Shown here one piece after another: positions 1-64,000 of a DNA stretch of 64,000 nt. Location: the NCBI GenBank assembly GCA_002742935.1, contig PDON01000065.1, positions 6,894 to 70,893 on the forward strand, given 5' to 3'. Source of the DNA: Candidatus Cloacimonadota bacterium. Its GTDB lineage: Bacteria; UBA4055. Each line of letters starts with the position of its first letter. Position 1 is the stretch's first letter. The position numbers and the translations under genes were made by a program. The notes under the pieces are model-generated. The model searched no databases. It had not been told where the DNA came from and was given only the letters and a program-made list of their open reading frames with translations.

Positions 1-723
1 AATTTTTGGTTTAAATCCGGAACTGCTACATTTTTAATAAAAAAGATTAAAGAGAATGGAATAAATATCAAAAATTATGATAAAATGATAAAAGTTCCTG
101 AAACATCTTTAGATTCTTACGAAATCAATAATATTGATATAACCGTTCTACTATTCCAAGCAGGATATTTAACTATAAAAGAAAAAATTGTTGATAGGAA
201 CGATTTTTCTCTATCCTATAAGTTGGGTTATCCAAATATGGAGATAAGAAAATCTTTATATCTACTTTTAGGAGCTGAATTTTCAGATATTCAGAGTGGT
301 ATTTTCTCCCAAATGTCCCAAAGTTTATTAGACTCTCTAAAAACAAATGATATAGACCTATTTATTGATACTTTGAGATCTATTTTTGCTTCCATACCAA
401 ACAATTTAGCCAGTGGAAGATATGAGAGTTATTATCATACTGTTATCTATTTAGCTTTAATGTTTATTGGAACAAATATCAAGGTTGAACAAAAAACAAA
501 TAATGGTATAATTGATGCTGTAGTTGAGACTGCTAATTTTGTTTATATCATGGAGTTTAAGATGAGCAGTGCTTCATCTGCCATAAAACAGATTAAAGAG
601 AAAAAGTATTACGAACCATACTTAGCCGATAAAAGAGAGGTTTTTTGTATGGGTATAGCCTTTGATGAAAAGGATAGGAATGTGGATGATTTTATAGTTA
701 TGGGTTTAGATGAGCTGAAATAA
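1..723 (+). CDS. C-terminal part of an AAA-ATPase-like / PD-(D/E)XK nuclease superfamily protein (DUF1703/PDDEXK_9-like). The gene begins upstream of the window.
   Basis: Frame 1 is open from nt 1 into the ORF-track ORF 85..723. The C-terminal pattern NFVYIMEFK...IKQIKEKKYYEPY...MGIAF is typical of the PD-(D/E)XK C-domain of the Bacteroides-type AAA-ATPase-like family. Confidence 0.5.
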   Translation, partial: NFWFKSGTATFLIKKIKENGINIKNYDKMIKVPETSLDSYEINNIDITVLLFQAGYLTIKEKIVDRNDFSLSYKLGYPNMEIRKSLYLLLGAEFSDIQSGIFSQMSQSLLDSLKTNDIDLFIDTLRSIFASIPNNLASGRYESYYHTVIYLALMFIGTNIKVEQKTNNGIIDAVVETANFVYIMEFKMSSASSAIKQIKEKKYYEPYLADKREVFCMGIAFDEKDRNVDDFIVMGLDELK

Positions 724-758
724 TAGAACTATATTTTACATATATTTTAACAGGAAAT

Positions 759-1310
759 TCACTTATACTCCTTCCACTCATATACTCCCCATAGAAAACT
801 TTTTTGATCATATATCTTTCCATGAGAATCAACTTTCTCTTCTGACTCATATAGTCCAAATAGAACATAAATATTGTTTTTGGACAATATTTTTTTCCCA
901 TCTCGACCACTTATCAAATGGCTTATCTCTTTCCTAAGTAGTTTTTTCTCTCTATGTAGTTCTAAAGTATCCTTTCTAAAAGAGTTTTCCAATATTTCTA
1001 TCTCTCTATTCAAACTCTTTTTTAACCCTTTTATCTTTTTGTTAAGAATATTTATATCCCTCTGTTTTGAGATAAGTTCTAACAAAAGATCCTGATTTTC
1101 TGTAATAGAAGGATATACATGACTACCAAAAAAATAGTTATTAGTTTTTGGAAAATTGATAGAGTCCAAATCAGCAGGAAGATTTAGTTTAGACTTGTAC
1201 CTATCAATAGTTGAATCGCTATAACTTATAGTTGTACAAGAAGAGAGAAATAATATAGAAATAGTTAGTACAATTTTTAAATAGATTGAGTAAAAAAATA
1301 TTTTTCTCAT
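759..1310 (-). CDS. Hypothetical lipoprotein with a coiled-coil segment.
   Basis: N-terminal signal peptide with a lipobox-like LSSC. K/E-rich heptad-like stretch. No recognisable family. Confidence 0.45.
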   Translation of the reverse strand: MRKIFFYSIYLKIVLTISILFLSSCTTISYSDSTIDRYKSKLNLPADLDSINFPKTNNYFFGSHVYPSITENQDLLLELISKQRDINILNKKIKGLKKSLNREIEILENSFRKDTLELHREKKLLRKEISHLISGRDGKKILSKNNIYVLFGLYESEEKVDSHGKIYDQKSFLWGVYEWKEYK

Positions 1311-1415
1311 AATAAATTACCCTTAAATTCTCTATTAAAATAAAAGTTTTCACTTTTGAGCTATCAATAAAATATCAACCTCTTAAATAAGATTTATTCT
1401 TTTTTTCAGTAGATC

Positions 1416-2372
1416 CTATTTAATCATAATTAAAAGTTTTTTACTCTTACTATAGTTAGGATTAAGCTCTAAAGATTTTTTTAGATAAGTCTTAGCATTT
1501 TCATAATCATTTTTAAGATGATATAACTTACCCAAAAGATAGTTTGCCCTAAATAATCTCGGCTGATTATCCAGTATATTGATTTTATCCTTTAGTTTTA
1601 AATATCTCTTTAAATATTCAATACCCTTATCATAGTTTAACTTTTTCTTTACCGAGTAATTTCCATAGTAAGACAGTAGTTTTGTAGATTCAATCTTAGA
1701 TATTCCTCTATCTAAAACTTCAAACCCTTTGTCATTCATATTTCGCATAAAATAACTTCTTGCTGTTAAGAAATAAAAATTAGGATTCAAACTATACTTC
1801 TCAATACATTTCTCTCCAAAAGATCCTGCATCATCCATATCACCACCGAAAAAGAAAAGCCTTAATTTACATAGATCAGAATATTCCTCATCAAATTTAT
1901 AGGTATCGCTTAATATTTTTTCAGTTTCATCATCATCTCCACCATAAAACCAAGGAACAATTTGGTATTCTAAAGCTAAGTGAAATATTAAACCTTTATG
2001 TTTAGGATTGAGTTTATACCCTTTTTTGAGAAAATCAAAGGTTTTATCAACTTTTTCCTTACCGGATGGAAGATTTGCATCTTTTGAGTTATCTGTCGAT
2101 AGTAAAAATTTTGCAGTCTTATATAAAATATCGGGATCATCATCTTTGAGTTTTAGGGCTTTTTCCATTATAAAATAGGCTTTTTCTGGATTTCCTTTAA
2201 GGTTTTCTATTAAACCGGTAAAATAGTATTGCTCAAATTTTTTCAAAGATGGTATAATCTTTTCTGCTTCATTGAGTTGATCTGTAGCTATTAATTTTTC
2301 AACCTTTTTGTTACTAATTGAAAAGAGAGAACTACTTAAAATCATCATTATTAAACAATAGTATTTTAACAT
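1416..2372 (-). CDS. Secreted TPR-like repeat protein, function unknown.
   Basis: Signal peptide. Repeated Y/L/K-rich helical motifs of the form KAxxYLKKSLELNPNY, characteristic of TPR. Confidence 0.5.
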   Translation of the reverse strand: MLKYYCLIMMILSSSLFSISNKKVEKLIATDQLNEAEKIIPSLKKFEQYYFTGLIENLKGNPEKAYFIMEKALKLKDDDPDILYKTAKFLLSTDNSKDANLPSGKEKVDKTFDFLKKGYKLNPKHKGLIFHLALEYQIVPWFYGGDDDETEKILSDTYKFDEEYSDLCKLRLFFFGGDMDDAGSFGEKCIEKYSLNPNFYFLTARSYFMRNMNDKGFEVLDRGISKIESTKLLSYYGNYSVKKKLNYDKGIEYLKRYLKLKDKINILDNQPRLFRANYLLGKLYHLKNDYENAKTYLKKSLELNPNYSKSKKLLIMIK

Positions 2373-2387
2373 TTTAGACCCTTATTC

Positions 2388-3521
2388 TTAATTTAATATT
2401 TTATACACTTCTATAGTTAATTTATCCTTGTTTAAAACAAAGATCTTATCCTTATATATTCTAAACTCAAGGGTAAGAAAAAGTTCTGGATTATTTACCT
2501 CAAAATCCATAGAAAGTGAGTTTTGGAAAATATTATCAATAAAAATATCAAACTTTACACCTTTCTCTTCATCTGGAACCGCAACCCAAACTCTGTTTAG
2601 ATGATCGATAAAGATACCGTTTATAGATTTTTTATAATCTAACCCTTTAAAACCTTTTAACTCATTACCCATGATAGAGTTTTTATTTTTTTTATCAGGA
2701 TTACTCTTTTTCTTTATATAGCTTTTTCTTATTTCAGAGATCTTCTCTTTATTGCTATTGAAAATATAGTATCTATAGCTATCACTACTATTTTCAGCTA
2801 TGTAGATATTTCCTCTAGAATCAAAATCTACTTTAGGAATCATACCTGTCAAAGATTCAGAACTATTGGTTTCAAATTTACTATATTTATATATCTCTCT
2901 TCCTTGAATAAAATAGCTATAATCAAAGAGATAGATATTATTACTAAGCTCCATCTCGCTCTTTGAAAAATCAGGCATTATTGCAGATCCTAGTAAAAGA
3001 TTATTCTGATACTTTTTTACATAGGTTGGCATAACCTGTTTTGGAAGGTCCCTTTTCTCAATAAAAGTTCCATCAGAATTAAAGATTAAAAATCTCTTAT
3101 TCCCAGGCATAAGGATATGAACTCTATCATTTATACAAACCATATTTACAACATAATCTCTTATGATAAACTCTCCCGGACCACTTCCCAATCCACCAAA
3201 AGAGAGAAGATAATTACCTCTATCATCATATTTAAAAACCTTTGACTGCTTTTTATCCAGTAGATATATATTTCCATTCTTATCAATATCAAATGAGGAA
3301 ATATCATTTATATAAATAGAATCATTTACCTGTGAACTTAATGTAAACAGTTTCTCTATTTCAATCTTAAAAGAATCATCAGCAGGAGTATTTTTATTTA
3401 TATAGTATGTTACCCCATTTTCTGTATAACTCTTGATTTTTTTGCTACAGCTAAAAGTAAAAAGAATTACAAATATGATTACAAAAGATTTTGACATATT
3501 TTTCATTATTTTTAATTCCAT
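2388..3521 (-). CDS. Hypothetical lipoprotein, beta-propeller-like.
   Basis: Signal peptide plus FSCSKK lipobox. Repeated GNIY/DxxGNxY beta-strand motifs. Confidence 0.45.
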   Translation of the reverse strand: MELKIMKNMSKSFVIIFVILFTFSCSKKIKSYTENGVTYYINKNTPADDSFKIEIEKLFTLSSQVNDSIYINDISSFDIDKNGNIYLLDKKQSKVFKYDDRGNYLLSFGGLGSGPGEFIIRDYVVNMVCINDRVHILMPGNKRFLIFNSDGTFIEKRDLPKQVMPTYVKKYQNNLLLGSAIMPDFSKSEMELSNNIYLFDYSYFIQGREIYKYSKFETNSSESLTGMIPKVDFDSRGNIYIAENSSDSYRYYIFNSNKEKISEIRKSYIKKKSNPDKKNKNSIMGNELKGFKGLDYKKSINGIFIDHLNRVWVAVPDEEKGVKFDIFIDNIFQNSLSMDFEVNNPELFLTLEFRIYKDKIFVLNKDKLTIEVYKILN

Positions 3522-4264
3522 TTTTTATCTTTATGCCCATACTTAAAGATAAGCCAGCTCTCTTTTTCATCACTACATTACATATTTCTTCTTTTTCTAG
3601 TAAATAAATATTTTGGTAACCAAAAGCAATTTCTACAATAAAAAATATATTCTTTTTATCAAACCAACAATCCTAATATTTTTGTCGCAGATTTAATCCT
3701 TGTGTACTAACTATTATTCTGTACTTTCATAATATTTAATTTTTTCTAAGTGCTACTCCTAAGTTTAGAATGATAAAACTATTTGATATATAATATAGAT
3801 ATAAATAAAAAAAATATTCGTGTCAAGGAGTAGAGATTAAATTTTAAACTTTATTTATAGCCCTTAGGATAGAACCTCTAGTATCCAAAATAATTTTTAT
3901 TAAATCTACAGATCTATTTTTGAAATCTATAAACTTTTTTTTTGGGAACTTTTTATAGCCAAAAGAAGCAAAAGAGGAATTAGGGTGAATAGATAAAACT
4001 ACTCTAAAAAATCAGACTGACTAGAAGCGAGCAGTACAAGGAATTACTTTTTTATGTAATTTAAGCCTATAATTACTAGGTGATTTGAACATAAAAATCA
4101 ACTTATCTTACTGACGGTTTATAGACAATCTGAATTTTTCACAAACTGAGATATACAAACCTATTTTTATCATACCCCGTATTAACTATAGTTTCTATTT
4201 TAGCAAACAGATATTTGCATTAAATTATAATCTATAAAGATAAATTAAAATAGAGGAAATCAGT

Positions 4265-6289
4265 ATGAACTATCCAAAAACTAGGAAATCCAACCAAGTT
4301 GATGATTATTTTGGAGTTAAAATTCCGGATCCCTACCGTCACTTAGAGGATGATCGCAGCCTTGAAACAGAGGAGTGGGTAAAAGAGCAAAATGCCCAAT
4401 GTGAACAATATCTAAACCAGGTAAAAGGTAGAGAAGAACTGGGTAAACAATTAAAAGATCTAATGAACTACCCAAGTTATACTACCCCTTTTAAAAAGGG
4501 TGATTACTACTACTTCTACCATAATGAAGGGTTACAGAACCAATTTGTTATCTACAGACAAAAAAGTTTAGATGATCCGGCAGAACTATTTTTGGATCCA
4601 AATACTCTATCTGATAATGGAACTACATCTGCTCATCTTAGTGGCTTTTCAGATGATGCTAAATTTGTTACAGTTTTTATATCTGAAGCGGGTTCAGATT
4701 GGCAAACTATTAAGGTTATGAATACCGAAACTAAAGAATGGTTAGAAGATGAGATAAAATGGGTTAAGTTTTCAGGTGCACAATGGATTGATAACGGATT
4801 CTACTACAGCGGATACTCAAAACCCGATAATAGTTCCAGTGATAAGAACCAGTTTCATAAAGTATATTATCACGAATTAGGAAAATCTCAGGAAAATGAT
4901 CAACTAATCTACGAAGATAAAGAAAACCCTCTTAGATTTCACACTCTATCTATAACTAAAGATAAGCAGTTTCTCATATTGTATATATCTGAAGGAACAA
5001 GTGGAAATAAAATAAAGGTTTTAAACAGAAGTAAAAATGGTAAAGAGTTTACAACAATTTTTGATAAAGATGGTTATGAGATGAGTATTGTTGATACCAA
5101 AGATGATAAGTTGATCACCATGACTAACTATCAAGCACCAAACTCTAAAGCTATTATTTTAGATCCTGAAGATCCTGAAAACTATACAGATTTGATCCCG
5201 GAAAAAGAGTATCCTTTAGAAGGTATAGTAATTACCAATTACGGTATAATTGCATCCTACCTCAAAGATTGCTCTACCTATGTTGAAGAGCTTGATGAAA
5301 ATGGTAAATTTAAAAGAGAGATTAAGTTTCCTACAATAGGTTCTATAGGAATTGGAAGTTACGAAAGGAGACCGGAAGAGCTATTTTTTAGCTTCTCATC
5401 CTATGTTCACCCTACAACAATCTACTCCTATAAAACAAAGGATGGAGAACTTAAACTTTTCAAATCAACACCAACTACTTTTACCCCTGAAAACTATACG
5501 GTTAAACAGATCTTTGTAGCTAGTAAAGATGGCACTAAGGTTCCTTTCTTTATGATCCATAAAAAAGGGTTAAAATATGATGGAAACAGACCAACAATTG
5601 TTTACGGTTACGGTGGTTTTAATATCAGTTTAACACCGAGCTATAATCCGGCACTTGTTCCTTTCTTGGAAAAAGATGGAATTTATGTTGTTACAAACCT
5701 GAGAGGTGGTGGAGAGTATGGCGAAAAATGGCATGAAGGTGGAATGAAAGAGAAGAAACAGAATGTATTTGATGATTTTATCTCTATCACAGAGTACCTT
5801 ATAGCAGAAAACTATACCAATCCTAAAAAGATTGCAATTAATGGTGGATCTAATGGTGGGCTCTTAGTGGGTTCTATTCTAACTCAAAGACCTGACCTTA
5901 TTGGAGCAGCTATTGCTGAAGTTGGAGTTTTGGATATGCTCCGTTTCCATAAGTTTACCATAGGTTGGGGATGGGCAGTAGAGTATGGAAGCAGTGATAA
6001 TAAAGAGGATTTTGAATATTTGATAAAATACTCACCTCTTCACAATATTAAGGAGGATTTTAACTACCCTCCAACTATGGTTATGACAGCAGATCATGAT
6101 GATAGGGTTGTTCCTGCTCACTCTTTTAAGTTTGTTGCAACTCTCCAAGAGAAAGCTCAGAAAAAGAACCCTTATCTTTTGAGGGTGGATATAGATTCAG
6201 GACACGGTAGCAGCAGTAGAGATAAATTGATTAAAAATGCAAAGGACAGACTATCTTTCGTTTTTAAAAATTTAGGTATGGAAGATTAG
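4265..6289 (+). CDS. Prolyl oligopeptidase (S9A family serine peptidase).
   Basis: 674 aa. N-terminal beta-propeller plus a C-terminal alpha/beta hydrolase with GGSNGGLL (nucleophile Ser) and downstream D and H. Strong family resemblance throughout. Confidence 0.9.
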   Translation: MNYPKTRKSNQVDDYFGVKIPDPYRHLEDDRSLETEEWVKEQNAQCEQYLNQVKGREELGKQLKDLMNYPSYTTPFKKGDYYYFYHNEGLQNQFVIYRQKSLDDPAELFLDPNTLSDNGTTSAHLSGFSDDAKFVTVFISEAGSDWQTIKVMNTETKEWLEDEIKWVKFSGAQWIDNGFYYSGYSKPDNSSSDKNQFHKVYYHELGKSQENDQLIYEDKENPLRFHTLSITKDKQFLILYISEGTSGNKIKVLNRSKNGKEFTTIFDKDGYEMSIVDTKDDKLITMTNYQAPNSKAIILDPEDPENYTDLIPEKEYPLEGIVITNYGIIASYLKDCSTYVEELDENGKFKREIKFPTIGSIGIGSYERRPEELFFSFSSYVHPTTIYSYKTKDGELKLFKSTPTTFTPENYTVKQIFVASKDGTKVPFFMIHKKGLKYDGNRPTIVYGYGGFNISLTPSYNPALVPFLEKDGIYVVTNLRGGGEYGEKWHEGGMKEKKQNVFDDFISITEYLIAENYTNPKKIAINGGSNGGLLVGSILTQRPDLIGAAIAEVGVLDMLRFHKFTIGWGWAVEYGSSDNKEDFEYLIKYSPLHNIKEDFNYPPTMVMTADHDDRVVPAHSFKFVATLQEKAQKKNPYLLRVDIDSGHGSSSRDKLIKNAKDRLSFVFKNLGMED

Positions 6290-6310
6290 TCAAAAGATTG
6301 GACAAGTAAT

Positions 6311-6345
6311 AAAACAGCTCTCCAAAACGGAGAGCTGTTTTTATT
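6311..6345. terminator. Bidirectional intrinsic terminator between the convergent S9A peptidase gene and the flgM operon.
   Basis: aaaacagctctcc-aaaac-ggagagctgtttt: a perfect 11-13 bp stem with a 5-nt loop. A/T tracts on both sides. Confidence 0.7.
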
Positions 6346-6363
6346 ATAAATAGAAAACATTGA

Positions 6364-6612
6364 TTAGTTGAGCAGTGTTCCAATATCTGAATCAAGTTGA
6401 GAAATTGAGGAGTCTAATCTAGCACTAATATAATCCATAAAGAAACTGCTACCCCTCTCTATAAACTCTATATGTTGACGTATAGCCTTTCTTTCATTCT
6501 CTCTTGCAACAGAAGTCAGATTTTTCTCTTTAATAGATTCTAAAACCTCTTTGACATCTTTTACAATATCCAATCTTGATATAAAAACGTGGTTGTTTGG
6601 AACTACCTTCAT
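6364..6612 (-). CDS. Hypothetical small protein co-transcribed with flgM, possibly flagellar-related.
   Basis: Overlaps the flgM stop by 4 nt (ATGA). No family recognised. Confidence 0.4.
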   Translation of the reverse strand: MKVVPNNHVFISRLDIVKDVKEVLESIKEKNLTSVARENERKAIRQHIEFIERGSSFFMDYISARLDSSISQLDSDIGTLLN

Positions 6613-6992
6613 AGATCTAAATCAACCTCATCTAAAATTTTACCCGCTGTTTCCAAGATAACATCATCTCTGGAATAGAATCCGGTTTCCATTCTTTTCT
6701 TAACCATTTCAATCTTATCTACTCTGGCTTGAGAGTCTCTGTTTAATATAGAGTTAACCATATATCTCTCTTTTTCATCACCCTTTAAATGATTTATCTT
6801 CAATTGAGAGTAACCATCCATACTATCAAGAGTAACTTTTTGATTCTCAGAAGGTGTTTCACAAGAAGTAACATTGCTGCTTCTCTTCATGAAATCTTTT
6901 AGCATATCAACAAAATGTTTATCTGAAGAGTTAACTTTTGAAATCTTTTCGGTTTTTAGATTTTCAGTATGTTGAGTCTTAACTACTTTCAT
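6609..6992 (-). CDS. flgM: Anti-sigma-28 factor FlgM-like protein.
   Basis: C-terminal region ...VDKIEMVKKRMETGFYSRDDVILETAGKILDEVDL matches the conserved FlgM C-terminal helix pair. The true start may be an internal Met. Confidence 0.55.
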   Translation of the reverse strand: MKVVKTQHTENLKTEKISKVNSSDKHFVDMLKDFMKRSSNVTSCETPSENQKVTLDSMDGYSQLKINHLKGDEKERYMVNSILNRDSQARVDKIEMVKKRMETGFYSRDDVILETAGKILDEVDLDL

Positions 6993-7225
6993 TACTGTTA
7001 CTTTTTCGTAAACTTAATTAACAAACACAATCTCACAATTAATAATATGGCAATAAATAAGCCAAAAAACTATAGTAAAATTATTTCATTTGCTATTTAT
7101 TTTAACAATAAAGAAAGTGTCACCTTATAGTATCATAAGCTGATTTCATTTACCACTATAGATACATATTTATTTAGAGTCTACTGGAAAAAGGTGATTT
7201 TGTAACAATGGTTACTCAAAAAAAA

Positions 7226-18437: not shown

Positions 18438-20339
18438 CTATTGGGAAAAGTAGCTATTCTCATCACCTAAATCAAAAATAATATTTTCATTCTTGATTGC
18501 TTTATTCACAAGTTTTTCTTTACTCTTATCAGCCCACCAAAAGTATAATGAACTGTAATAATCACCATCAAAGCCCAAAATATTTTTAGGTGTTCCAAAC
18601 CTATCCCAATATAAAATTCTCTCACTGTACGATGAATACCAACCCATTATAGAATGGTATTGATTATAGTACTCTTCATCTATTTGCTGAATATATCTCT
18701 TTCTATTTTTAAAATCATACTCCTCATTATACAGTTCAATTAAAGAGTCAACATAGGAGCTTTTAAAACCTGTAATATTATTTGTATTTTCAATATCACT
18801 TGTTGATGAATGTAAAAAGAAACCCGGTGAAGGTATATCTGTATTTTTCCAATAGCTAACTACCATATCAAAAGATTTAGAATAAACTCTATCACTAATT
18901 TCATCTCTATCCACTGATTCTATTTTTAGGTCTATACCCGCTTTTTTTAGATCATTCTTAAAAAAGCTTACAAACTTACTACTATATTCTGACTCCAATA
19001 TTGAAATAGAAAACCTCTTACCATCCTTAACCCTAAAACCATCAACCATATTCCAACCATTTCTTTTTAGTAGAGAATCAGCTAAATGAAAATTATACTT
19101 TACAGGAGTAATATTTTTGGAAGCATACTCTCCACTAACATATATAGATGGGGTTGGAGTATACTCATTGTTAAACAGCTTATCTATTATGTACTCTCTG
19201 TTAAAAAGATGAGCTATTGCCTTCCTAACTTCAATATTATCCAGCGGTTTAACCCTTGTATTCAAATCTATCCTAAAAGATGATTTTGGAAGATTATTAA
19301 ATACTTTTCGCTTTTTCACAACCCCTCTTTTTAAACAAGAAAATGATAAAGAAGGGTTTTCTCTATCAAACTCACTCTTCCACCAATCTGTTCTTGGAAC
19401 CGGAAGAATATCAATATTATCATGTTTGAAGCTATCTTTACAGATAAAATCACTTTGAAAAACCTTTAACTCTATTTTATCAAAATTTCCTGTTTTTTCC
19501 CAAAATCCTTTCTTATATCCCCAATAATCTTTTCTTCTCCTAAATTCAAAACTCTTTCCCTCATTAATATTAAAAGGATTAATTATGTAAGGACCGCTTC
19601 CAACTGGTTGACAGTTCTTATATCTATATATAAATGTATCTATTGAGTTTTTTTCGATCTCTCTCTTTTGGAGAATATACATGAATGTTGATATTTTACT
19701 AAAAGATCTCCAATTTTTGTTTGAGGTTGTTATTTCAATTATATACGGAGAAATAATTTTTGCTGAAAACTCTTTAAAAAAATTATTTTCAAATAAAGAT
19801 TCTGTTTTTGGATTTTTGATAAGTTCTAACGAAAATTTCACATCCTCAGCCGTTACCCTACTACCATCACTCCATCTTGCAAGAGGGTCAATTCTAAATG
19901 TATATTTACCCTTCTCATTATCTATTTTCCAATGAGAAGCTAAACTTGGGCAATATCCTCCTTCTAGAGAAGGGTCTTTCACAAGAAGAGTTTCAAAAAC
20001 TAAAGAGTTCAAATAAACAGAAACTTCCCAAAAACTATCTTTACCAATTGGAGACAATGTTTTAGGATATTGAAATATAGGAAATCTAAACACTCCCCCT
20101 TTAACAGCCTTTTGGGATTCGTAAGGGTCATAAAAACTACTTGTAACAAAACCCAAATCATCAGCAATTTCCTCAAAACCATTACCCCCCATTTCAGGAT
20201 CAACAGATAAGATGGCACCATCAGAAACCTCATATCTAGAGACAGAAACAGGACCATCATCGGGAAATTTATTTTTTCTTTTAGTTATACTTTCGCAGCA
20301 GATAAAAAAAAGAAATATTAATATTAAAAACCATTTCAT
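18438..20339 (-). CDS. ABC transporter substrate-binding protein, family 5 (oligopeptide/nickel type), orphan.
   Basis: 633 aa with a lipoprotein signal. Overall SBP_bac_5 architecture. No permease or ATPase genes nearby. Confidence 0.7.
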   Translation of the reverse strand: MKWFLILIFLFFICCESITKRKNKFPDDGPVSVSRYEVSDGAILSVDPEMGGNGFEEIADDLGFVTSSFYDPYESQKAVKGGVFRFPIFQYPKTLSPIGKDSFWEVSVYLNSLVFETLLVKDPSLEGGYCPSLASHWKIDNEKGKYTFRIDPLARWSDGSRVTAEDVKFSLELIKNPKTESLFENNFFKEFSAKIISPYIIEITTSNKNWRSFSKISTFMYILQKREIEKNSIDTFIYRYKNCQPVGSGPYIINPFNINEGKSFEFRRRKDYWGYKKGFWEKTGNFDKIELKVFQSDFICKDSFKHDNIDILPVPRTDWWKSEFDRENPSLSFSCLKRGVVKKRKVFNNLPKSSFRIDLNTRVKPLDNIEVRKAIAHLFNREYIIDKLFNNEYTPTPSIYVSGEYASKNITPVKYNFHLADSLLKRNGWNMVDGFRVKDGKRFSISILESEYSSKFVSFFKNDLKKAGIDLKIESVDRDEISDRVYSKSFDMVVSYWKNTDIPSPGFFLHSSTSDIENTNNITGFKSSYVDSLIELYNEEYDFKNRKRYIQQIDEEYYNQYHSIMGWYSSYSERILYWDRFGTPKNILGFDGDYYSSLYFWWADKSKEKLVNKAIKNENIIFDLGDENSYFSQ

Positions 20340-52689: not shown

Positions 52690-54243
52690 CTACTTAACTA
52701 AAACCATCTTCTTGGTTAAAGAAGCGTTTGGAGTAGTTAAAGTGTAGAAATAAACACCTGCATTTAAGTTTAATGCATTAAACTTAACACTGTGATTACC
52801 TGTAGCCATTTCACTATTTAGAAGCTCTTTTACAAGCTCTCCATTTGAATTGAATACACTTAAATTAACCATACCGCTCATTGTGTTTCTAAAACTAATA
52901 GTAGTTTCAGGGTTGAAAGGGTTTGGATAGTTTTGAGCTAAAGTAGTAGAACCTGGAACTATTTCTGATTCAATACCAGACATTGTAGTTACATAAGCTC
53001 TTATATACCAGTTTCCTTCAAATCCTACTTCAGAAAGATGAATCCAGTCGCCATCAGCATATGCCCAGTTTCCATCAAGGTTTGTACTAACACTCTCATC
53101 ACGAGCCATATAGTTTCCACCTGACTCAAAAACAAAAGCCACTTTTCCGGTAATAACTTCTTCGGAATTAACACTTACAACTGTTCCTTCTCCACCAAGT
53201 GCATTAAATGTTCCTGTTAAATCACCAATTACATCATCAATACTTGGAGTAGTTCCATTATACTGAGTAACCTTCCAAGTAACACCATTTTCAGGATTTG
53301 AGTATCCAGCTTCAAGGGTATTTACTTTCACTGACGATTCACCAAAATCCCAAGTAATTGCAGAAGCCCATGGAGCATTAGCAATACCTACTGCACCATC
53401 AAAACTATAATTAGCACCATACTCTACCCAATACTCATTAGCATTAGGATCGGTAACACTTACAGCAAAAACATCTGTTTTTTCAAAAGAATCATTTTCA
53501 GCCTTAACTGTAATGTTAGCAATTCCACTACTAGAACCTGCAGTTACTGTAAGAGTGTTACCAGAAAGAGAAGCAGTTGCTACACTAGGAGATGAACTAC
53601 CTTCAACTGTTACAATTATTTCTACACCTGGCTCAGCACTGAAAACATCACTGATATCGATATCCATAGTTTCATTAACATTCATTGCAATATCTTCGAT
53701 AGGATTATCTACAAAGATATAATTAGGATCGAAAGAATCAATTGCATCCTTCATTGCTGCATCTAAGTTTGAGTTGTTATCGTTGTAGAAAACCCTATAA
53801 CCTTTTCCAACCACACCAAATAAAGGAACATAACCATTTCCAAAACCTCCCGAGTTATTGTATAAACCCGTAGAAACCGGATAGTTTTGACCTGACCAAT
53901 TATATGTAGCCACCCAGTATGATTTTCCCGCATAAGGACCTGAAGCATCAGGACCAAAAACATTTGCCCATTTTTGTTGCATTACCGGCGCCGCCGCTAC
54001 ACAACCAGGTCAACCTGCACTTCCCCAGAAGATCATTACAGGTTTGCCTGCATCAACCTGCTCATAGATTGATGTTGTAACACCATCAGTTGTTGTAAAT
54101 GTAATATTTGAGCATACATCTCCAACATCATACTGTCTAGTTTCTTGATTTTCTACCTTCTCAAATTTAGCAACTTTCCCCTCATTTGCAAAAGCGACAA
54201 AAGATACTGAAAGTAGAAAGATCAATAATGAAAACTTTTTCAT
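52690..54243 (-). CDS. Secreted thioredoxin-fold (redoxin/TlpA-like) protein with Ig-like middle domains and a T9SS type-A C-terminal sorting domain. It contains one in-frame TGA (complement of 54010-54012) at the first position of the redox motif (U-P-G-C), making it a candidate selenoprotein.
   Basis: ORF-track pieces 54010..54243 and 52690..53982 lie in the same frame, separated only by TGA plus 9 sense codons (PGCVAAAPV). The joined sequence reads ...GKPVMIFWGSAG-[TGA]-PGCV..., the canonical redoxin strand-loop with CxxC. The C-terminus NYPNPFNPETTISF is the T9SS CTD signature. Signal peptide and an AAGGGGAG RBS are present. Confidence 0.5.
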
Positions 54244-56265: not shown

Positions 56266-58044
56266 TTAAGATAAAGGTCTCGTTTTCTCCTCTAACCAAA
56301 TCTTCTCCTCTTCATTCAGATACGGAGAAACAAGATCAAACACACTCTTATGATATGAATCTATCCAATCAATCTGATCCTTACTTAAAAGAGAAGTATC
56401 CACAAGATCTCTTTCAATTGGAACCTTTGTCAATGTTTCAAATGAGAAAAATTTAATACCCTCATTTGTTTTCTCCTCTTTAACCACTATAAGATTTTCT
56501 ATCCTTATTCCATGACTATTGGCTAAATATCTACCCGGCTCATTAGAAACAATCATACCTTTTTCAAGTGAAACAGCCTTAGGAAAAGGACTTATATTTT
56601 GAGGACCTTCATGTACATTTAGAAAATGACCAACACCGTGACCCGTTCCATGACCATAGTTTAGGAAATAATCCCAAAGTGGTTTTCTTGCCAATATATC
56701 AAGCTGATAACCTTTTGTTCCTTCAGGAAATTTAACTTTAGAAAGTTCAACCATTCCTTTGAGGACTAAAGTATAATCCCTAATCTCCTCATTAGTTGGT
56801 TTTCCTATAGCTGCAACCCTTGTAATATCGGTAGTACCCTCAAAATATTGACCTCCAGAATCTATTAGATATAAACCATCCCCGGAAATTTTTCTATCAC
56901 TCTTCTCATCAACTCTGTAATGAATAATAGCACCGTTACCCTTAAATCCGGAAATAGCGGGGAAACTATCTTGAACATAGTTTTCCATAGATGCTCTAAA
57001 AGCAGTTAACTTATCAGAAGCGGAAAGTTCACTTATTTCTCCAGAACCAACATTTTTATAGATCCAGTGAAGAAATTTAACAACAGCAGCTCCATCTTTA
57101 ATGTGGGCAACTCTCATACCCTCAACTTCAACGCTATTCTTTTTAGCTTTCATAAGAGTTGAAGGGTTTGGAAGATTTACAATATCAGAAACAGTTTCAA
57201 GAGCTCTGTAGATAGAATAGTTTATTCTGTTAAAATCAATAACTACTTTAGATTTTTTTACTAAGGATTTAACTACTTCACCTGTGGTGTTATAACTTTC
57301 AATATCTACACCACTCTTTTTTAAACTACTCTTCACATCTTCGGGAATCTTTTCAGGGTTAACAAACAAAGTTACCTTTTCCATACCAATGAGAAGATAG
57401 GAGATAAAACAAGGATTGTAACTTATATCGCTTCCTCTTAAATTCAATATCCATGCAATATCATCTAGAGTTGAAATGAAGTTATAATCACCTTTTCCCT
57501 TAATACTCTCTCTAATTCTATCTATTTTACTTTCTCTGGATTCTCCTGAAAATTTAACATCAAGTTCAAAAACTTTATCCATTGGAACTGTAGGCCTATC
57601 ACTCCAAACTGTTTCAGCAAGATCATATTCTGCTACAACTTCAATCTTTTTAGTTAAAAACTTGCTTACCATTCCTTTAACAATACCGTAAGAAACAACA
57701 TAACCATCTAAACCAAACTTTGACCCCTCTTCAAGATTCTCATAAACCCAATCATTTATGGAAGGAACACCAGCTTCTCCCATTTTAAAAAGATCTATAC
57801 CGGAACCTTTAAGCTCCTCTTCTGCTTGTAAAAAGTATCTGCCATCAGTCCACAATCCAGCTTTATCAGCTAAAACAACTACAGTTCCTGCTGAACCTGT
57901 AAAACCTGAAATATAAGATCTAAAACTCCATCTCTCTGCAACATATTCAGAATCGTGAGGATCTGTTGATGGAATAAAATAACCATCAAGACCCTTTAAT
58001 TTCATCTCTTCTCTAATCTTTGCTACTCTTTTCTTTATATCCAT
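56266..58044 (-). CDS. Xaa-Pro aminopeptidase (M24B, aminopeptidase P-like with N-terminal creatinase-like domains). The ORF-track start at 58206 gives an unlikely 54-aa extension, so the Met at 58044 is preferred.
   Basis: Pita-bread fold metal ligands: D...D, HGTGHGVGHFLNVHE, E...E. A long N-terminal double domain as in the 3-domain APP family. Confidence 0.8.
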   Translation of the reverse strand: MDIKKRVAKIREEMKLKGLDGYFIPSTDPHDSEYVAERWSFRSYISGFTGSAGTVVVLADKAGLWTDGRYFLQAEEELKGSGIDLFKMGEAGVPSINDWVYENLEEGSKFGLDGYVVSYGIVKGMVSKFLTKKIEVVAEYDLAETVWSDRPTVPMDKVFELDVKFSGESRESKIDRIRESIKGKGDYNFISTLDDIAWILNLRGSDISYNPCFISYLLIGMEKVTLFVNPEKIPEDVKSSLKKSGVDIESYNTTGEVVKSLVKKSKVVIDFNRINYSIYRALETVSDIVNLPNPSTLMKAKKNSVEVEGMRVAHIKDGAAVVKFLHWIYKNVGSGEISELSASDKLTAFRASMENYVQDSFPAISGFKGNGAIIHYRVDEKSDRKISGDGLYLIDSGGQYFEGTTDITRVAAIGKPTNEEIRDYTLVLKGMVELSKVKFPEGTKGYQLDILARKPLWDYFLNYGHGTGHGVGHFLNVHEGPQNISPFPKAVSLEKGMIVSNEPGRYLANSHGIRIENLIVVKEEKTNEGIKFFSFETLTKVPIERDLVDTSLLSKDQIDWIDSYHKSVFDLVSPYLNEEEKIWLEEKTRPLS

Positions 58045-58533
58045 CTTTATCCCTCTAATTTTATTTAATTTAGTAATTGAAATATTAACTAAAAAACTCA
58101 TATGAAAATATGATAGATATTTTAATCTAGTCTTAAATATAGTTAAACTAATTAGGAGTTTCAAGTAAATAGACTTGACAGATTTAGGGAACTTAACACT
58201 AAACAATTTTACTCCAATTATATTGAATTAGAGAAAATAGATTAGGGTTTAGAACTTTATTCTTCTGTAGATAGTCTACATATTTCATGAGGCTTTAAAA
58301 TTTGGTATAATTTTTGAAAAATTATTGCTCAATGATAAAGAGTTCTGATATTATCTACAAAACACCGTGCTTTTCATCATTCTCTTCATGTTGTTTTCCC
58401 ACTTTATCCAATAGTGGCTTTGTAAACTTTTTTAGAATATTATTTTTGGGAATACCTACAACACAATTAATATTATTTCTTTACACATCAACTAAGAATA
58501 TCCTTTCTGGTTTCGTAATTGGAACCTCAACAA

Positions 58534-59889
58534 CTATTCTATTATTTTTAAATATTTTTGAGACATTTTTTGATGCTCTGGAGATTTTAAATAGGATTCT
58601 ATAACAGGTTTAACTTTCGCTAATTTTTTTAGATTATGGTATTTGTGATAAAATCTGGCTAAATGACAAGTTGAAAGCAAATAATTTCTTTCGTCAGCTA
58701 TTTGTCTAAACAAAAGCCTGGCTCTTAAAAAAGATTTTTCTGATTTTCTATGTTCTCCTGCAATATTTAAATAAGAAAGTCCCCTAACTAATTCAATCTT
58801 AGCTTTTTGATAGTTATTTTCTTTAGTATATTTTTCAGCTTTTTCTAAATATTCGGTTGCATTTGTGTACTCTCTTAATCCATTATAACACATTGCAATA
58901 TTTAAGCATACTTTACCATATTCATCATCCTTTTCCTTTTCAAATTTAAGTGATTTTTTGAAAGATTCTATGCCCTTTTGATACTTTTTAACTCTAGAGT
59001 TAGAAACTCCTAATGTTACTAAGATTTGAACTTTAATTTTAGGATTAGAGGTAGTTGTTAATTGATTTTTAAGCTCATTAATAGTTAATTCGTGATGTTT
59101 TCCCTTTAATTCTAAAGACCTACAAGCACCCTTTATAAATTCAAGGGTAAAACCATTATTACTTGTTTTTTCAAATGTCTCATAAGCTTTATGGTAGCTC
59201 TTTTCTGCTTCTTCTTTTTGGTTGTTAAATTTAAAACAATCTCCAAGATGATAATAAATTTCTCCCTCTATAAAGGAGATTTTACTCTTTAATTTTTCTA
59301 AATATCTTTCTTTTCTTTTTAATATTTTCTTGCCTACTTCAATAGCTTTACTAAAAAGACCCTTATCTCTAAATATGCGGAAAAAAGAATAAATTATTTC
59401 ATAGTAGTTAGGATGTTCTTTATTTTTCGCGAATTTCTGATACTCTTCTAATAATACTTCCTCTTCTTGCTTTTCATATTCTTCAAAATTTTCTAATGAA
59501 GGGAATTCAAAATGCTTATTATTGGTAAGTTTTGCCTTTTTTAGATAGTAGTAAATTGTACCTGCTGTAACTTTGCGACCTAAATTAGTGATAATTTCTT
59601 TGTATGAAATATGCTTATTTTCTTTTTTAAGCTTAACAATTTTTCTCTTTTCTCTATAGCTTAATTTATGTCTTATTTTAAAAGATTCCGGGATTTTTCT
59701 TTGATAAGGTTCTTTTTTATTATTTCTCTCTTTTAGCCAACGATAAATAGAGTTTCTAGAAAAACTATAGGTTGTTGCTAGCATTGAAACGCTAAATCCC
59801 TTGTCATATTCTGCCAAAATTTCGTTTTTAAGTTTTATTGCAACTGTCATGTTGATAGCCTTTTTTATATTGTTTTTTGACTGCCCCAA
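58534..59889 (-). CDS. Putative transcriptional regulator: paired N-terminal HTH motifs plus a TPR repeat array.
   Basis: The N-terminal ~120 aa carry two HTH-like segments (…SRNSIYRWLKE… and …ISYKEIITNLGRKVTAGTIYYYLKK…). Tandem TPR-like repeats follow. Divergent from the small secreted peptide gene. Confidence 0.5.
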   Translation of the reverse strand: MGQSKNNIKKAINMTVAIKLKNEILAEYDKGFSVSMLATTYSFSRNSIYRWLKERNNKKEPYQRKIPESFKIRHKLSYREKRKIVKLKKENKHISYKEIITNLGRKVTAGTIYYYLKKAKLTNNKHFEFPSLENFEEYEKQEEEVLLEEYQKFAKNKEHPNYYEIIYSFFRIFRDKGLFSKAIEVGKKILKRKERYLEKLKSKISFIEGEIYYHLGDCFKFNNQKEEAEKSYHKAYETFEKTSNNGFTLEFIKGACRSLELKGKHHELTINELKNQLTTTSNPKIKVQILVTLGVSNSRVKKYQKGIESFKKSLKFEKEKDDEYGKVCLNIAMCYNGLREYTNATEYLEKAEKYTKENNYQKAKIELVRGLSYLNIAGEHRKSEKSFLRARLLFRQIADERNYLLSTCHLARFYHKYHNLKKLAKVKPVIESYLKSPEHQKMSQKYLKIIE

Positions 59890-59976
59890 AACTAGTATTG
59901 ACTCGTTTTTATTTCTTTTGAATAACTTTTACACTCCTTTTGTGAAAACATCTTAAATTTTAAAAAGGAGAATCTT

Positions 59977-60183
59977 ATGCAGAAGAAACTAACAATTCTG
60001 ATTCTAATTCTTTCAGCTTTATTAACTACTCTCAAGGCTGAAAACCTATGTTCAAATTTGCAAAACCAACCTACAATTGAGAAGTCTGACATTATTTCTT
60101 TAGCTACCCAAAAAGGGGGTCGTACAGGAGATGATAGCGATGACCCCATTGATAACGACCTTGATTTTGACAACTACAAGTAG
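59977..60183 (+). CDS. Small secreted protein or propeptide (68 aa) with an acidic C-terminal tail.
   Basis: AGGAG RBS 7 nt upstream. Signal peptide MQKKLTILILILSALLTTLKA. Supersedes the overlapping antisense ORF 59892..60173. Confidence 0.45.
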   Translation: MQKKLTILILILSALLTTLKAENLCSNLQNQPTIEKSDIISLATQKGGRTGDDSDDPIDNDLDFDNYK

Positions 60184-60728
60184 TTATTTTGTAACATTCT
60201 CATAAAATTAAGAACAATAACTAGGAGTGGCTCCATCACTATATCTATTATAATATATAAATTATAAGTGTAGTTTTATAGGGAAACACTCTTAGTTTCG
60301 TTTATAATTCCCATCTATTTCAAACATATAATTTATCTAAATAATAAAGTTTACAAATTTGTTTATTTTGTCATCTTTTGCATTATAATAAAAAACATTG
60401 GGAAAGTCAACTCTAAAATTGTGGTGTTTTATTTGGATTTATTTGACAATTTACTAATAATTAGCAAGTTAGCTGTAAATATCTTAAATATGGCTTAATT
60501 ATTTCTTTAAGAATTAACTTTTTCTTTATCTATGTAGCTTAACTTACTTTAGATTAAGTAGTTAACCATATAAACTTCTTATACCTTCGTGTCCTAAAAC
60601 TAGAACTAACTCGTTTTGGGAGCTAAAATCTATTTGTTATCCTAAAAACAGAGCTTATGAGTCGCGACCAATTAAAAGCTTCGAAGTAAATTAAGTTTAA
60701 TTAAAACTCCTAAAAGGAGGTGAAAAGA

Positions 60729-60863
60729 ATGAAAGTTGAAAAGAAAGCACAAAGGAGTTTAAAAATGAGTAGCAATTCTAACTTGATGCATGGATTTTTT
60801 GGTCTGTATCAATGCGATTTTGATCTCAGAATTTGCTGTAATGGTTGTAGTTGTACTACTTAA
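60729..60863 (+). CDS. Cys-rich micro-ORF (44 aa, or 32 aa from the alternative start at 60765). Candidate RiPP precursor peptide.
   Basis: GGAGG at 60716-60720, 8 nt before the ATG, and a second AGGAG before the internal ATG at 60765. Translation MKVEKKAQRSLKMSSNSNLMHGFFGLYQCDFDLRICCNGCSCTT*. Sits 167 nt upstream of the radical SAM/SPASM gene and is followed by a hairpin. Confidence 0.5.
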   Translation: MKVEKKAQRSLKMSSNSNLMHGFFGLYQCDFDLRICCNGCSCTT

Positions 60864-61029
60864 TAGTGCCTTTGTACACTATCAATGAGGCTACTCCTTT
60901 GGGATAGCCTCATTATGATCGTTGCACAATAGATTCTTTAAGAAAAAAAAGAATCTTCAAATCATTATTTCAACTATAAATTCATTTTCATGTTAACTGT
61001 AATCTTAAAGTTTAATCGGAGATTTTACA

Positions 61030-62450: not shown

Positions 62451-64000
62451 ATGAAATCATTGCTAAAGTTTTTTAAATTGTTACCTCTCAAGTATATTAT
62501 CAGCTATTTTATCATAGGGGTTATATTTTCAGTTGTTTTTGTGTTAGAATACTTTAGCCCTTTAATTCAAAAAAATTTGATTGATACTGCAATTAGAGAT
62601 AAGAATATTTTTAATGACTCCTTGTTTCATTTGATTTATCTTTATATACTTTATGCCATTTTTGTTTTTACAGCCACGCTCTCTATTTCCTTTTTGAGAA
62701 TAAAAGTTGGTAAATTGTTTTATTCTGTTTTTTTAAAAAAGATTTTCAGCTTAAAAAAGACTGCTATTCAGAAAAAAGGAACCGGATACTACTATGATAT
62801 TTTATCAAAGGATAAAGAGTCTGCTGTAGCATTGATAAGTTTGTCTTTTTTCTCTCTACTATTTAGTATCATTCAAACTTGCTTTATTTTAGTAATGATT
62901 TGGAAGTGGAGTCGTATTCTTTTTATAATTTTTATGATAGTTCTATTTTCATCTATAATTATAACATCTATTCTAGCTTTGTTTAATAGAAATAATTACC
63001 TAAATATGAGAAAAAACGGTACAACTTTAGCAAATGAGACAATAGATGCTATTTCAAACAATTTTTCAATCCAAAATTTTCTATCATCTAGTATTTTTCA
63101 AAATTTATTAACAAAAAAATATGCCTTTTTTGAGAAGTATATGAGAAGATACATTTACATTGCTACTTCCCCTCAAATAATTGTTTCAATTATTAAGACG
63201 GTTGCATTTGTATTTACCATAGTTTATTCTTTAAATCTGGTTATATCCGGAGAAATGACTTACGGTATTCTACTGGCTATAATCTCATATTTCCAAATGA
63301 TTTTGAAACCAATAGAAAATTTTCATTCAGTAATGAACAACATTGCAGAAAGTGAAGTAAGTATCAAAAGGTTACTTAATTTAATAAATCCTAAAACTAA
63401 TCAATTAAATTATCAAGATAAAGTTATACCTTTGAACAGTATAAATAATCTTACCTTTAAAGATGTTTATTTTGAATACGGAAATTCTAAAAAACAAAAA
63501 CATTATCTTGATTTTAAAATTGAAGATGAAAAAGTTGGAATTGTTGGAATTTCAGGAGAAGGTAAAACTACCTTATTAAAATTATTGTACTTGGAAGAGG
63601 TTGCAAAAGAGGGGAATATTTTTTTAGATGATACAATCTTGGGTAATCTTCCAATCTCTTACTTTCAAGCTATTTTTAATATTTACCCTCAAAATTTAGA
63701 AATTTTTAATAAAGACTTACTCTTTAATTTAACTCTAGGAAAAAAAGTAATACCAAATTCAACTGTGGATAGATATCTAAAAGATTATCAAAACAGATTA
63801 CAACTTTTCTTTGATTATCTTGAAAAAGAACTTCAAAACAGTAATATTTCAAATTCAAAAAAATTTATCAAAATACAAAAATATTTAGAGAAAGATGATT
63901 TTTTAAAGGAAATTTTAGGAGTTATTGATGTTTATGTAGAATCCTATCACATTTATGAAATTAACTTTGATACTTACATTAAATACCTTGATTTTATTGT
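62451..64000 (+). CDS. ABC transporter, fused permease plus ATPase. The 3' end lies beyond the window (partial).
   Basis: AAGGAG RBS 7 nt upstream. Six-TM region, then Walker A GISGEGKTT. Open to the window edge and not in the ORF track because it has no stop. Confidence 0.6.
   Translation, partial: MKSLLKFFKLLPLKYIISYFIIGVIFSVVFVLEYFSPLIQKNLIDTAIRDKNIFNDSLFHLIYLYILYAIFVFTATLSISFLRIKVGKLFYSVFLKKIFSLKKTAIQKKGTGYYYDILSKDKESAVALISLSFFSLLFSIIQTCFILVMIWKWSRILFIIFMIVLFSSIIITSILALFNRNNYLNMRKNGTTLANETIDAISNNFSIQNFLSSSIFQNLLTKKYAFFEKYMRRYIYIATSPQIIVSIIKTVAFVFTIVYSLNLVISGEMTYGILLAIISYFQMILKPIENFHSVMNNIAESEVSIKRLLNLINPKTNQLNYQDKVIPLNSINNLTFKDVYFEYGNSKKQKHYLDFKIEDEKVGIVGISGEGKTTLLKLLYLEEVAKEGNIFLDDTILGNLPISYFQAIFNIYPQNLEIFNKDLLFNLTLGKKVIPNSTVDRYLKDYQNRLQLFFDYLEKELQNSNISNSKKFIKIQKYLEKDDFLKEILGVIDVYVESYHIYEINFDTYIKYLDFI

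Follow-up and report, generated by a model that had tools for sequence, protein, structure and literature searches.

The 64,000 nt of DNA analysed here (the window; forward strand of contig PDON01000065.1, Candidatus Cloacimonadota assembly GCA_002742935.1) carry two divergent genes next to a cluster for a peptide that is made by the ribosome and modified after translation (RiPP). One gene codes for a regulator that combines a helix-turn-helix (HTH) domain with tetratricopeptide repeats (TPRs), the other one for a small exported peptide of 68 aa, and the cluster is of the radical S-adenosylmethionine (radical-SAM) type. All these parts are of known kinds. Cytoplasmic TPR receptors for exported oligopeptides are regarded as a speciality of the Bacillota. 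Our tentative interpretation, to which we give somewhat less than even odds, is that regulator and peptide constitute a conserved control module attached to a radical-SAM RiPP cassette and that this control includes peptide sensing, by a convergent, RRNPP-like receptor/propeptide module that would act via two sequence boxes. We consider this the best explanation because the pair shows the architecture by which RRNPP systems are detected and because the gene order is the same as in Rgg/short hydrophobic peptide (SHP) operons.

The open reading frame (ORF) of the regulator is located on the minus strand and can maximally be read from a TTG codon at position 59889 (58534-59889, 451 aa). The likely start is the ATG at position 59850, resulting in a protein of 438 aa, since a gene caller uses the same start on an independent contig and since this ATG is conserved in a paralog with 88% identity, to which the similarity in DNA reaches only about 17 nt beyond the ATG on its upstream side. 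An initial annotation, made from the sequence alone, had described an HTH and TPR protein of 451 aa: the domains were recovered by Pfam and NCBIfam, while the length has to be corrected. Both ORFs exist as annotated, and the ORF list and the sequence also confirmed the division of the 68-aa protein into a signal peptide and an acidic tail of 47 aa. The two genes are, however, not arranged back to back as annotated but head to head, their start codons being 126 bp apart, and the small ORF does not lie immediately upstream of the RiPP cluster but ends 545 nt upstream of the precursor gene (60729-60863).

The 68-aa protein is composed of an n-region (MQKK), a hydrophobic core of 15 residues, an LKA↓EN site and the 47-aa tail, which has a net charge of −7. 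Signal peptides of this and the other small ORFs were judged by the rules for n-, h- and c-regions together with the conserved x-x-A↓E/D site. A reading as lipoprotein was rejected, since the E-N-L-C sequence before Cys25 is unlike the S/G-C lipoboxes of the neighbouring lipoproteins. Identical copies of the gene are present on three other contigs, and no homolog of the protein other than itself was found among 5.8 billion proteins. Neither the 68-aa ORF nor its positional equivalents gave a match in Pfam or NCBIfam, NVEALA included. As a background, the whole 64-kb window contains three small ATG ORFs with a signal-peptide-like N-terminus in its six frames, and two such ORFs were found in 154 kb away from the regulators when a looser filter was combined with the demand for a ribosome-binding site. 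The sequence following the small ORF gave no terminator-like fold (z-score +0.9 for 60184-60270), Rfam searches of the intergenic regions gave no match, and a scan for sigma-70 promoters and terminators returned no more sites than were obtained with shuffled sequences. Bacteroidota-type −33/−7 motifs placed by eye were dropped due to inconsistent spacing.

Comparative genomics revealed that the pair recurs. A small signal-peptide ORF is present at the equivalent divergent position beside four distant homologs of the regulator (about 25% identity or less), which excludes the absence from related genomes that the initial annotation had named as an argument against a functional pair. Two strict and three looser or degenerate examples of such an ORF lie divergently within 130-190 bp of regulator homologs. 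One of the four distant homologs belongs to the same genome: contig L013 overlaps positions 1-7075 of the window at 100% identity, so that its cassette (cassette A, Table 1) is located just upstream of the window. The small ORF of cassette A codes for 52 aa (MKKIFLLIILIATLTSQVSA↓EIIYVMVDGKAIIIDTDRSDNNEGTDIPRLRN), has the ribosome-binding site TAGGAG and is separated by 190 bp from the regulator P0011. It is followed by a fragment of an AraC-type HTH protein (110-128 aa), a Cys-rich precursor of 80 aa with repeated A-C-x motifs (…DACAADACGWKGCAIQACGANACLAEACVLDMCAADICAIDTIIL), a radical-SAM/SPASM enzyme (449 aa), a TolB-like/DUF5128 beta-propeller lipoprotein and a membrane protein of 127 aa; the AraC-type fragment lies between small ORF and precursor. 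Cassette A and the cassette of the window (cassette B) share 24% identity for the regulators, 27% for the radical-SAM enzymes and 24-34% for the propellers. Since they hold all components in common at these identities, an old duplication with retention of every part is indicated.

In the loci L016 and L017, derived from two JGI metagenomes, a 65-aa ORF (…SVLNA↓EATNSTIIVDNEIIIVNCQ…SSDNDDIEPIELPW) is located 151 bp from the regulator, and no RiPP or propeller genes were found near the pair. Nothing argues more strongly for an association of the small gene with the regulator, and not with the biosynthetic genes, than this stand-alone pair. A T8 run interrupts the small ORF of L012 (about 64 aa), and the DUF5128 gene is found on the opposite side of the regulator. 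L015 encodes a clear homolog of the L013 peptide (…TQAKA↓DIVTITVDGVTIVIDTGRGNDEETGFIKHKN), adjoining fragmented propeller lipoproteins. Three features recur in each of the five small ORFs: a site of the form x-x-A↓E/D/R near residue 20, then a short stretch rich in Ile and Val, and finally an acidic tail containing Pro. By a rough estimate, the probability that even the two strict cases were placed by chance is about 1e-4. Two further candidates were not accepted as small partners: the divergent signal-peptide ORF of L009 has a DLNGDG motif and appears to be the beginning of a large protein of the FG-GAP type, and an ORF of L001 is cut by the contig end.

A 28-nt repeat is present in two copies. 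Box 1 is located upstream of both divergent genes, at 38 nt from the ATG of the regulator and at 89 nt from that of the small ORF, and Box 2 precedes the precursor gene (Table 1). The 22-nt palindrome contained in the repeat has exactly two matches in the 64 kb, compared to 0.02 expected, both in identical orientation (direct repeat family D1). As RNA, Box 2 has a predicted fold of −11 kcal/mol (z −3.0). The first 10 nt of the box (AAAACTAGTA) recur 92 nt upstream of the small ORF of cassette A versus 89 nt in the window; this is a post hoc observation with a chance probability of roughly 0.02. The 22-nt box is absent from the intergenic regions of the loci of paralogs with 42-88% identity. 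A bipartite HTH together with a TPR domain that possibly mediates dimerisation would fit the size of a 22-nt site, and we infer that the box is a candidate operator. We consider it likely that the regulator is the cluster's own regulator and acts through these boxes by binding and co-regulation.

The type of DNA-binding domain was evident from profile searches and structure prediction. In Pfam (E ≤ 1) the N-terminus of the regulator matches HTH_23 (E 1.4e-5) and, more weakly, HTH_Tnp_IS630, HTH_Tnp_Tc3_2, HTH_Tnp_1 and HTH_28; the best NCBIfam matches are the N-termini of IS481 (E 3.7e-8) and IS630 (E 2.5e-5) transposases, with scores far below the family cut-offs (33 versus 224 bits). Two AlphaFold2 (AF2) models, the first with a pLDDT of 75 and the second, built with ten sequences, with 85.6, both contain the HTH units, the linker and the TPR superhelix. 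Helices of the HTH units are predicted at residues 5-16, 21-28 and 32-43 and at residues 65-77, 83-90 and 96-105, and the basic linker between the units (45-59) has a pLDDT below 50. The motif SIYRW of the recognition helix is kept in close relatives, and W38 is invariant in an alignment of eight sequences. Two HTH units with a basic linker are also typical of the N-termini of IS630/Tc1-mariner and IS481 transposases, whereas the C-terminal 300 residues of the regulator consist of TPRs. Pfam did not detect a DDE catalytic domain, only the N-terminal ~130 residues match transposase profiles, and a repeat search of the window found no terminal inverted repeats flanking the gene. Based on profiles and models, we propose that the regulator is a transcription factor of the cytoplasm that contains a domesticated bipartite transposase-type HTH and uses the TPR superhelix as sensor.

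In a further reading there is no functional link: the regulator would be a domesticated piece of a transposase that has been joined to TPRs and is now decaying, and the small ORF beside it would be a chance or orphan gene. The 68-aa protein is indeed an orphan in the large protein collection, several members of the regulator family are disrupted, contigs often break at regulator genes, and a repeat element follows three of the paralogs. Nevertheless, coincidental adjacency is very improbable: the pair occurs in five cassettes against a very low background, the ribosome-binding sites are strong, the recognition-helix residues are conserved in a confidently predicted fold, neither a DDE domain nor terminal inverted repeats are present, and the box is duplicated upstream of two genes.

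The regulator family itself is tiny: when 1.84 billion representatives were searched with a profile, about 10 members of full or nearly full length came up before the hits turned to generic TPR proteins. No relatives were found in 185,579 GTDB species genomes with two different alignments or in viral contigs and plasmids, and a metagenome scan gave only an already known contig. In five loci the family is linked to radical-SAM/propeller cassettes. The 88% paralog (L004) is frameshifted and adjoins a SPASM-only ORF, a DUF5128 gene and an ABC exporter.

The RiPP cluster of the window consists of a short Cys-rich precursor, a maturase and an exporter (Table 1). The best NCBIfam matches of the maturase are maturases of Cys-rich peptides, all below the equivalog cut-offs. 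A stable stem-loop between precursor and maturase genes is probably a processing or attenuation hairpin; this position is usual for hairpins that set the ratio of precursor to enzyme in RiPP operons. Longer contigs (L005, L006) demonstrate that the cluster continues beyond the window with a DUF5128 six-bladed beta-propeller lipoprotein. The 545-nt spacer between small ORF and precursor contains no remnant of an AraC-like gene as is present in cassette A.

In streptococci, radical-SAM RiPP operons (those of streptide and further RaS-RiPPs) are controlled by Rgg/SHP systems (PMC9389541, PMC13361665), and these operons have the same order of regulator, divergent peptide gene, precursor, radical-SAM/SPASM enzyme and exporter as the window. 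In both cases an operator-like box is shared by the peptide gene and the biosynthetic operon. SHPs are, however, short and hydrophobic and are exported by PptAB without a classical signal peptide, while the window peptide carries a Sec signal, with an acidic tail behind it. The window regulator is unrelated to Rgg, with no TIGR01716-like or HTH_3 match in Pfam and NCBIfam, and the window cassette includes a beta-propeller lipoprotein. Control of a lantibiotic cluster by TprA/PhrA is reportedly exerted by a comparable regulator/peptide system. Certain clusters of Bacteroidota combine six-bladed beta-propeller lipoproteins (DUF5128 or BF3164-type), small NVEALA-type peptides and radical-SAM/SPASM enzymes, and the DUF5128 or TolB-like lipoproteins beside radical-SAM/SPASM genes and small exported peptides in our loci resemble them; no HTH-TPR regulator has, to our knowledge, been described as belonging to such clusters. 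Our literature search retrieved no description of a transposase-type bipartite HTH joined to TPRs, of its conserved pairing with a Sec propeptide, or of its occurrence in diderms of the FCB group.

RRNPP receptors consist of an N-terminal XRE-type HTH, which is replaced by a three-helix bundle in Rap, and a C-terminal TPR-like superhelix with about 5-9 repeats. Pfam (TPR_12, TPR_8, TPR_1 with E ~1e-9, and TPR_2; about 8 repeats) and the AF2 model assign such a C-terminal superhelix to the window regulator as well; the match to TPR_12 (E 3e-9) covers profile positions 5-73 of 77. RRNPP_detector searches for a receptor of 250-500 aa with a TPR hidden Markov model match of E<1e-5 and an adjacent ORF of 10-100 aa, at an intergenic distance of −60 to 400 bp and with a high-usage Shine-Dalgarno site and a Sec/SPI signal (PMC10075063). 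The window pair corresponds to this signature in its architecture: a regulator of 438 aa, a small exported propeptide gene of 68 aa at 126 bp, AGGAG as Shine-Dalgarno sequence and a signal peptide by rule. The arrangement of an HTH and TPR protein (~440 aa) and a small Sec-type propeptide gene at a radical-SAM RiPP operon is real. In the RRNPP_detector study, which covered complete Firmicutes genomes only, RRNPP systems were found beside biosynthetic gene clusters, 196 of which adjoin candidate systems (PMC10075063).

In comparison to the known RRNPP systems of Bacillota and their phages (Rap/Phr, NprR/NprX, PlcR/PapR, PrgX, Rgg/SHP, ComR, AimR), the window system shares a cytoplasmic protein with N-terminal DNA-binding domain and C-terminal TPR superhelix, and the existence of multiple divergent paralogous pairs alongside paralogs without partner. 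It differs by the bipartite IS630/IS481/Tc3-like HTH, by a diderm host of the FCB group, and by small propeptides with a conserved internal core rich in Ile and Val and mature parts of 32-47 aa. Occurrence in Bacillota or on a mobile element was not observed, as the source names are metagenome-assembled genomes of Candidatus Delongbacteria and Cloacimonadota. The window encodes an FlgI P-ring protein and a protein with a type IX secretion system (T9SS) sorting domain, which indicates a diderm-type organism and agrees with the Gram-negative type assumed in the initial annotation. The logic of RRNPP systems and of Rgg/SHP-controlled operons would be built here from non-homologous parts in a Delongbacteria-like diderm of the FCB group, probably as a result of convergence.

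Building on the gene anatomy, the recurrence of the pair, the two boxes and the TPR fold, the proposed mechanism would be as follows. The regulator would bind both 22-nt boxes, one of which precedes the small ORF and overlaps the region of the regulator's promoter, while the other one precedes the operon of precursor, maturase and exporter. Its own gene, the gene of the small peptide and those of the RiPP would thereby come under joint control. The 68-aa product would be exported by Sec and cleaved after LKA, and a fragment of the acidic tail would represent the cognate signal. After re-import this fragment would be bound in the TPR groove, leading to positive feedback that is probably density-dependent. 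The peptide as ligand and its re-import are speculative steps of this scheme.

Several findings weigh against peptide sensing of this kind. Membership of the regulator in the RNPP family is not supported by the tests we ran, which revealed no homology to RNPP receptors beyond generic TPR similarity. An XRE-type HTH was not detected (no HTH_3, PF01381 / SM00530, in Pfam at E ≤ 1), and the single regulator sequence gave no PDB hit better than E 0.1. A family profile against the PDB retrieved designed consensus TPRs and LGN/Pins first, and NprR with E 6e-8 over one stretch of 176 residues. We treat this hit as generic TPR similarity, because a sub-profile of the C-terminal 94 residues does not retrieve NprR. 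Foldseek likewise placed LGN and consensus TPRs first, with Rap of pLS20 at rank 20, RapF at 23, phi105 Rap (phage, peptide bound) at 36 and NprR at 41; the TM-scores for NprR were 0.49/0.59, and 0.49 is the highest query-normalised value in the Foldseek list. According to the model, the structural neighbours of the regulator are peptide-binding TPR superhelices (LGN/Pins, also Rap and NprR), and the predicted fold is compatible with a peptide-binding TPR receptor without singling out RNPP. The initial annotation had raised the question of a Rap/Phr- or RNPP-like cassette and had named a generic TPR scaffold with a transposase-derived HTH as the opposing outcome; as regards membership in the Rap/NprR/PlcR/PrgX family, the bipartite transposase-type HTH, PDB profile and Foldseek speak for the latter.

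Further points on the same side concern the small ORFs, the sampling and the cell envelope. The mature parts of the small ORFs have no significant similarity in composition-preserving shuffles (p 0.03-0.87), and we therefore claim recurrence only in terms of position and architecture, and clear homology only between the peptides of L013 and L015. A small partner ORF that is complete was not found beside the closest relatives of the regulator (42-46% identity) or the 88% paralog. Since the regulator family is so small, the comparative sample is small as well and comes from few metagenomes, and several members carry frameshifts or stop codons. Sec export in a diderm ends in the periplasm, so that a signal between cells must cross the outer membrane both ways. 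This envelope, and the conservation of an internal core instead of the C-terminal tail, are the strongest arguments against a pheromone.

The same two points favour an explanation in which the small exported protein is co-regulated with the cluster as an immunity or accessory factor, or as periplasmic partner or substrate of the DUF5128 propeller lipoprotein. The regulator would still be the cluster's own, and its TPR domain would sense the RiPP precursor or its leader, the mature RiPP, another protein or a metabolite. We regard this main alternative as quite conceivable, though short of probable. The beta-propeller lipoprotein is the commonest neighbour of the regulator homologs (window/L005, L004, L012, L013, L015), and the shared box speaks for co-regulation only, not for sensing. 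RNPP signals usually lie in the C-terminal tail of the propeptide; in the comparison of L013 and L015 the best-conserved part of the small ORFs is an internal, hairpin-like core rich in Ile and Val, and the mature parts of 32-47 aa are long for a pheromone. Co-regulation alone does not explain why the pair of L016/L017 occurs without nearby RiPP or propeller genes, why the propeller of L012 is on the other side of the regulator and not downstream of the small ORF, and why the small ORF is always head to head with the regulator.

The problem of crossing the outer membrane and of re-import would be sidestepped if the TPR domain bound the small pre-protein or the RiPP precursor in the cytoplasm before export, and export then freed the regulator for action on the boxes, without any signalling from cell to cell. 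Class II TPR chaperones of type III secretion systems (IpgC, SicA) operate in such a manner together with AraC-type activators. The TPR region weakly matches LcrH/SycD chaperones in NCBIfam (E 9e-4), and an AraC-type HTH fragment lies between small ORF and precursor in cassette A. With 18.9 bits, however, the chaperone match stays far under the 104.8 bits of the family cut-off, no remnant of an AraC gene was found in the window cassette, and a regulator with its own DNA-binding domain does not need an AraC partner. We consider secretion-coupled partner switching improbable.

A stronger version of the convergent RRNPP-like module would be an independently evolved family of peptide-pheromone receptors with a transposase-derived bipartite HTH and TPRs, in which each copy has its own fast-evolving Sec propeptide and exerts pherotype-specific control of radical-SAM RiPP production in diderm Delongbacteria, as the first RRNPP-like circuit outside the Bacillota. 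This extension appears rather doubtful to us. If the RRNPP-like module is real, the signalling design would have arisen more than once, and the question would arise how a peptide signal crosses two membranes. Regulator, 22-nt box and candidate inducer peptide would also offer a means of activating silent radical-SAM RiPP clusters of uncultured bacteria. Even if the peptide is not the ligand, the five-part cassette of regulator, small exported peptide, Cys-rich precursor, radical-SAM/SPASM enzyme and beta-propeller lipoprotein represents an undescribed conserved unit.

Table 1. Positions of the features discussed in the text (numbering of the window unless a contig is given).
Feature	Position	Strand	Remarks
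HTH-TPR regulator, coding sequence	58534..59850	minus	438 aa from ATG 59850; Pfam/NCBIfam domains, AF2 model
N-terminal bipartite DNA-binding domain, residues 1-110	59521..59850	minus	two three-helix HTH units and disordered basic linker
TPR superhelix domain, residues ~130-438	58537..59463	minus	~16 antiparallel helices; Pfam hits, AF2, Foldseek/PDB profile
Box 1, copy of 28-nt repeat	59882..59909	plus	holds 22-nt imperfect palindrome AAAACTAG-N6-CTCGTTTT at 59888-59909
Shine-Dalgarno sequence AGGAG	59966..59970	plus	6 nt before ATG of small ORF
Small exported-peptide gene, 68 aa	59977..60183	plus	signal peptide residues 1-21 (59977-60039) and 47-aa acidic tail
AT-rich non-coding spacer	60184..60589		no terminator-like structure following small ORF
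Box 2, second copy of 28-nt repeat	60590..60617	plus	22-nt palindrome at 60596-60617 with arms extended to CCTAAAAC/GTTTTGGG; 133 nt upstream of precursor ATG
RiPP precursor, 44 aa	60729..60863	plus	Cys-rich C-terminus (…YQCDFDLRICCNGCSCTT); ribosome-binding site AAAGGAGGTGA in front
Stem-loop after precursor gene	60884..60914	plus	dG −23 kcal/mol, z −3.8, 0/200 shuffles as good; without U-tract
Radical-SAM/SPASM peptide maturase, 439 aa	61030..62349	plus	Pfam Radical_SAM, Fer4_12; NCBIfam TIGR04463, CefB, Clo7bot, PapB-like
ABC exporter, 671 aa in full	62451..64000	plus	cut by window end; frame translation, NCBIfam
Cassette A	L013:943-5968		ends ~0.9 kb before window position 1; regulator P0011, small ORF, AraC-type fragment, precursor, radical-SAM/SPASM enzyme, lipoprotein, membrane protein
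Post-regulator repeat element	L001:1904-2300, L002:4429-4900, L004:5607-6000		absent from window; no Rfam match

The interruptions in the regulator family were located more exactly. The T8 run of the L012 small ORF lies at L012:7820-7860, and an A9 run at L016:2700-2730 interrupts the regulator identically in the L016 and L017 assemblies. The 88% paralog is frameshifted within L004:5099-5457, and the L015 regulator has an in-frame stop at about 2900-3190. Decay, phase variation and assembly error are all conceivable causes. In one metagenome assembly, the stop codons of three regulator paralogs are immediately followed by a repeat element of about 120-155 nt in several imperfect copies (Table 1); this element may explain the contig breaks at regulator paralogs.

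Some other genes of the window touch on peptide processing and uptake. A gene for a prolyl oligopeptidase (S9, apparently without signal peptide) is located at 4265-6289, about 5 kb from cassette A, and a Xaa-Pro aminopeptidase (M24) is encoded directly downstream of the window regulator (56266-58206). As Pro occurs in the acidic tails of all small peptides (DDP↓ID, DIP↓RL, IEP↓IELPW), proline-specific processing is conceivable; this may be a coincidence. An OppA/DppA-type binding protein (SBP_bac_5, 633 aa) is encoded at 18438-20339 on the minus strand, with no adjacent permease genes; it only permits re-import of a peptide and does not support it. Another paralog of the DUF5128 beta-propellers (2388-3521, minus strand), 34% identical to the propeller of cassette A, adjoins a TPR-only protein of 318 aa (1416-2372) and is accompanied neither by a radical-SAM gene nor by an HTH. 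Finally, a 77-aa ORF with signal peptide and good ribosome-binding site (54010-54243, minus strand; ends …GKPVMIFWGSAG) adjoins the gene for a T9SS-sorted protein and resembles the N-terminus of a TlpA-like protein with thioredoxin fold that is truncated before the CxxC motif.

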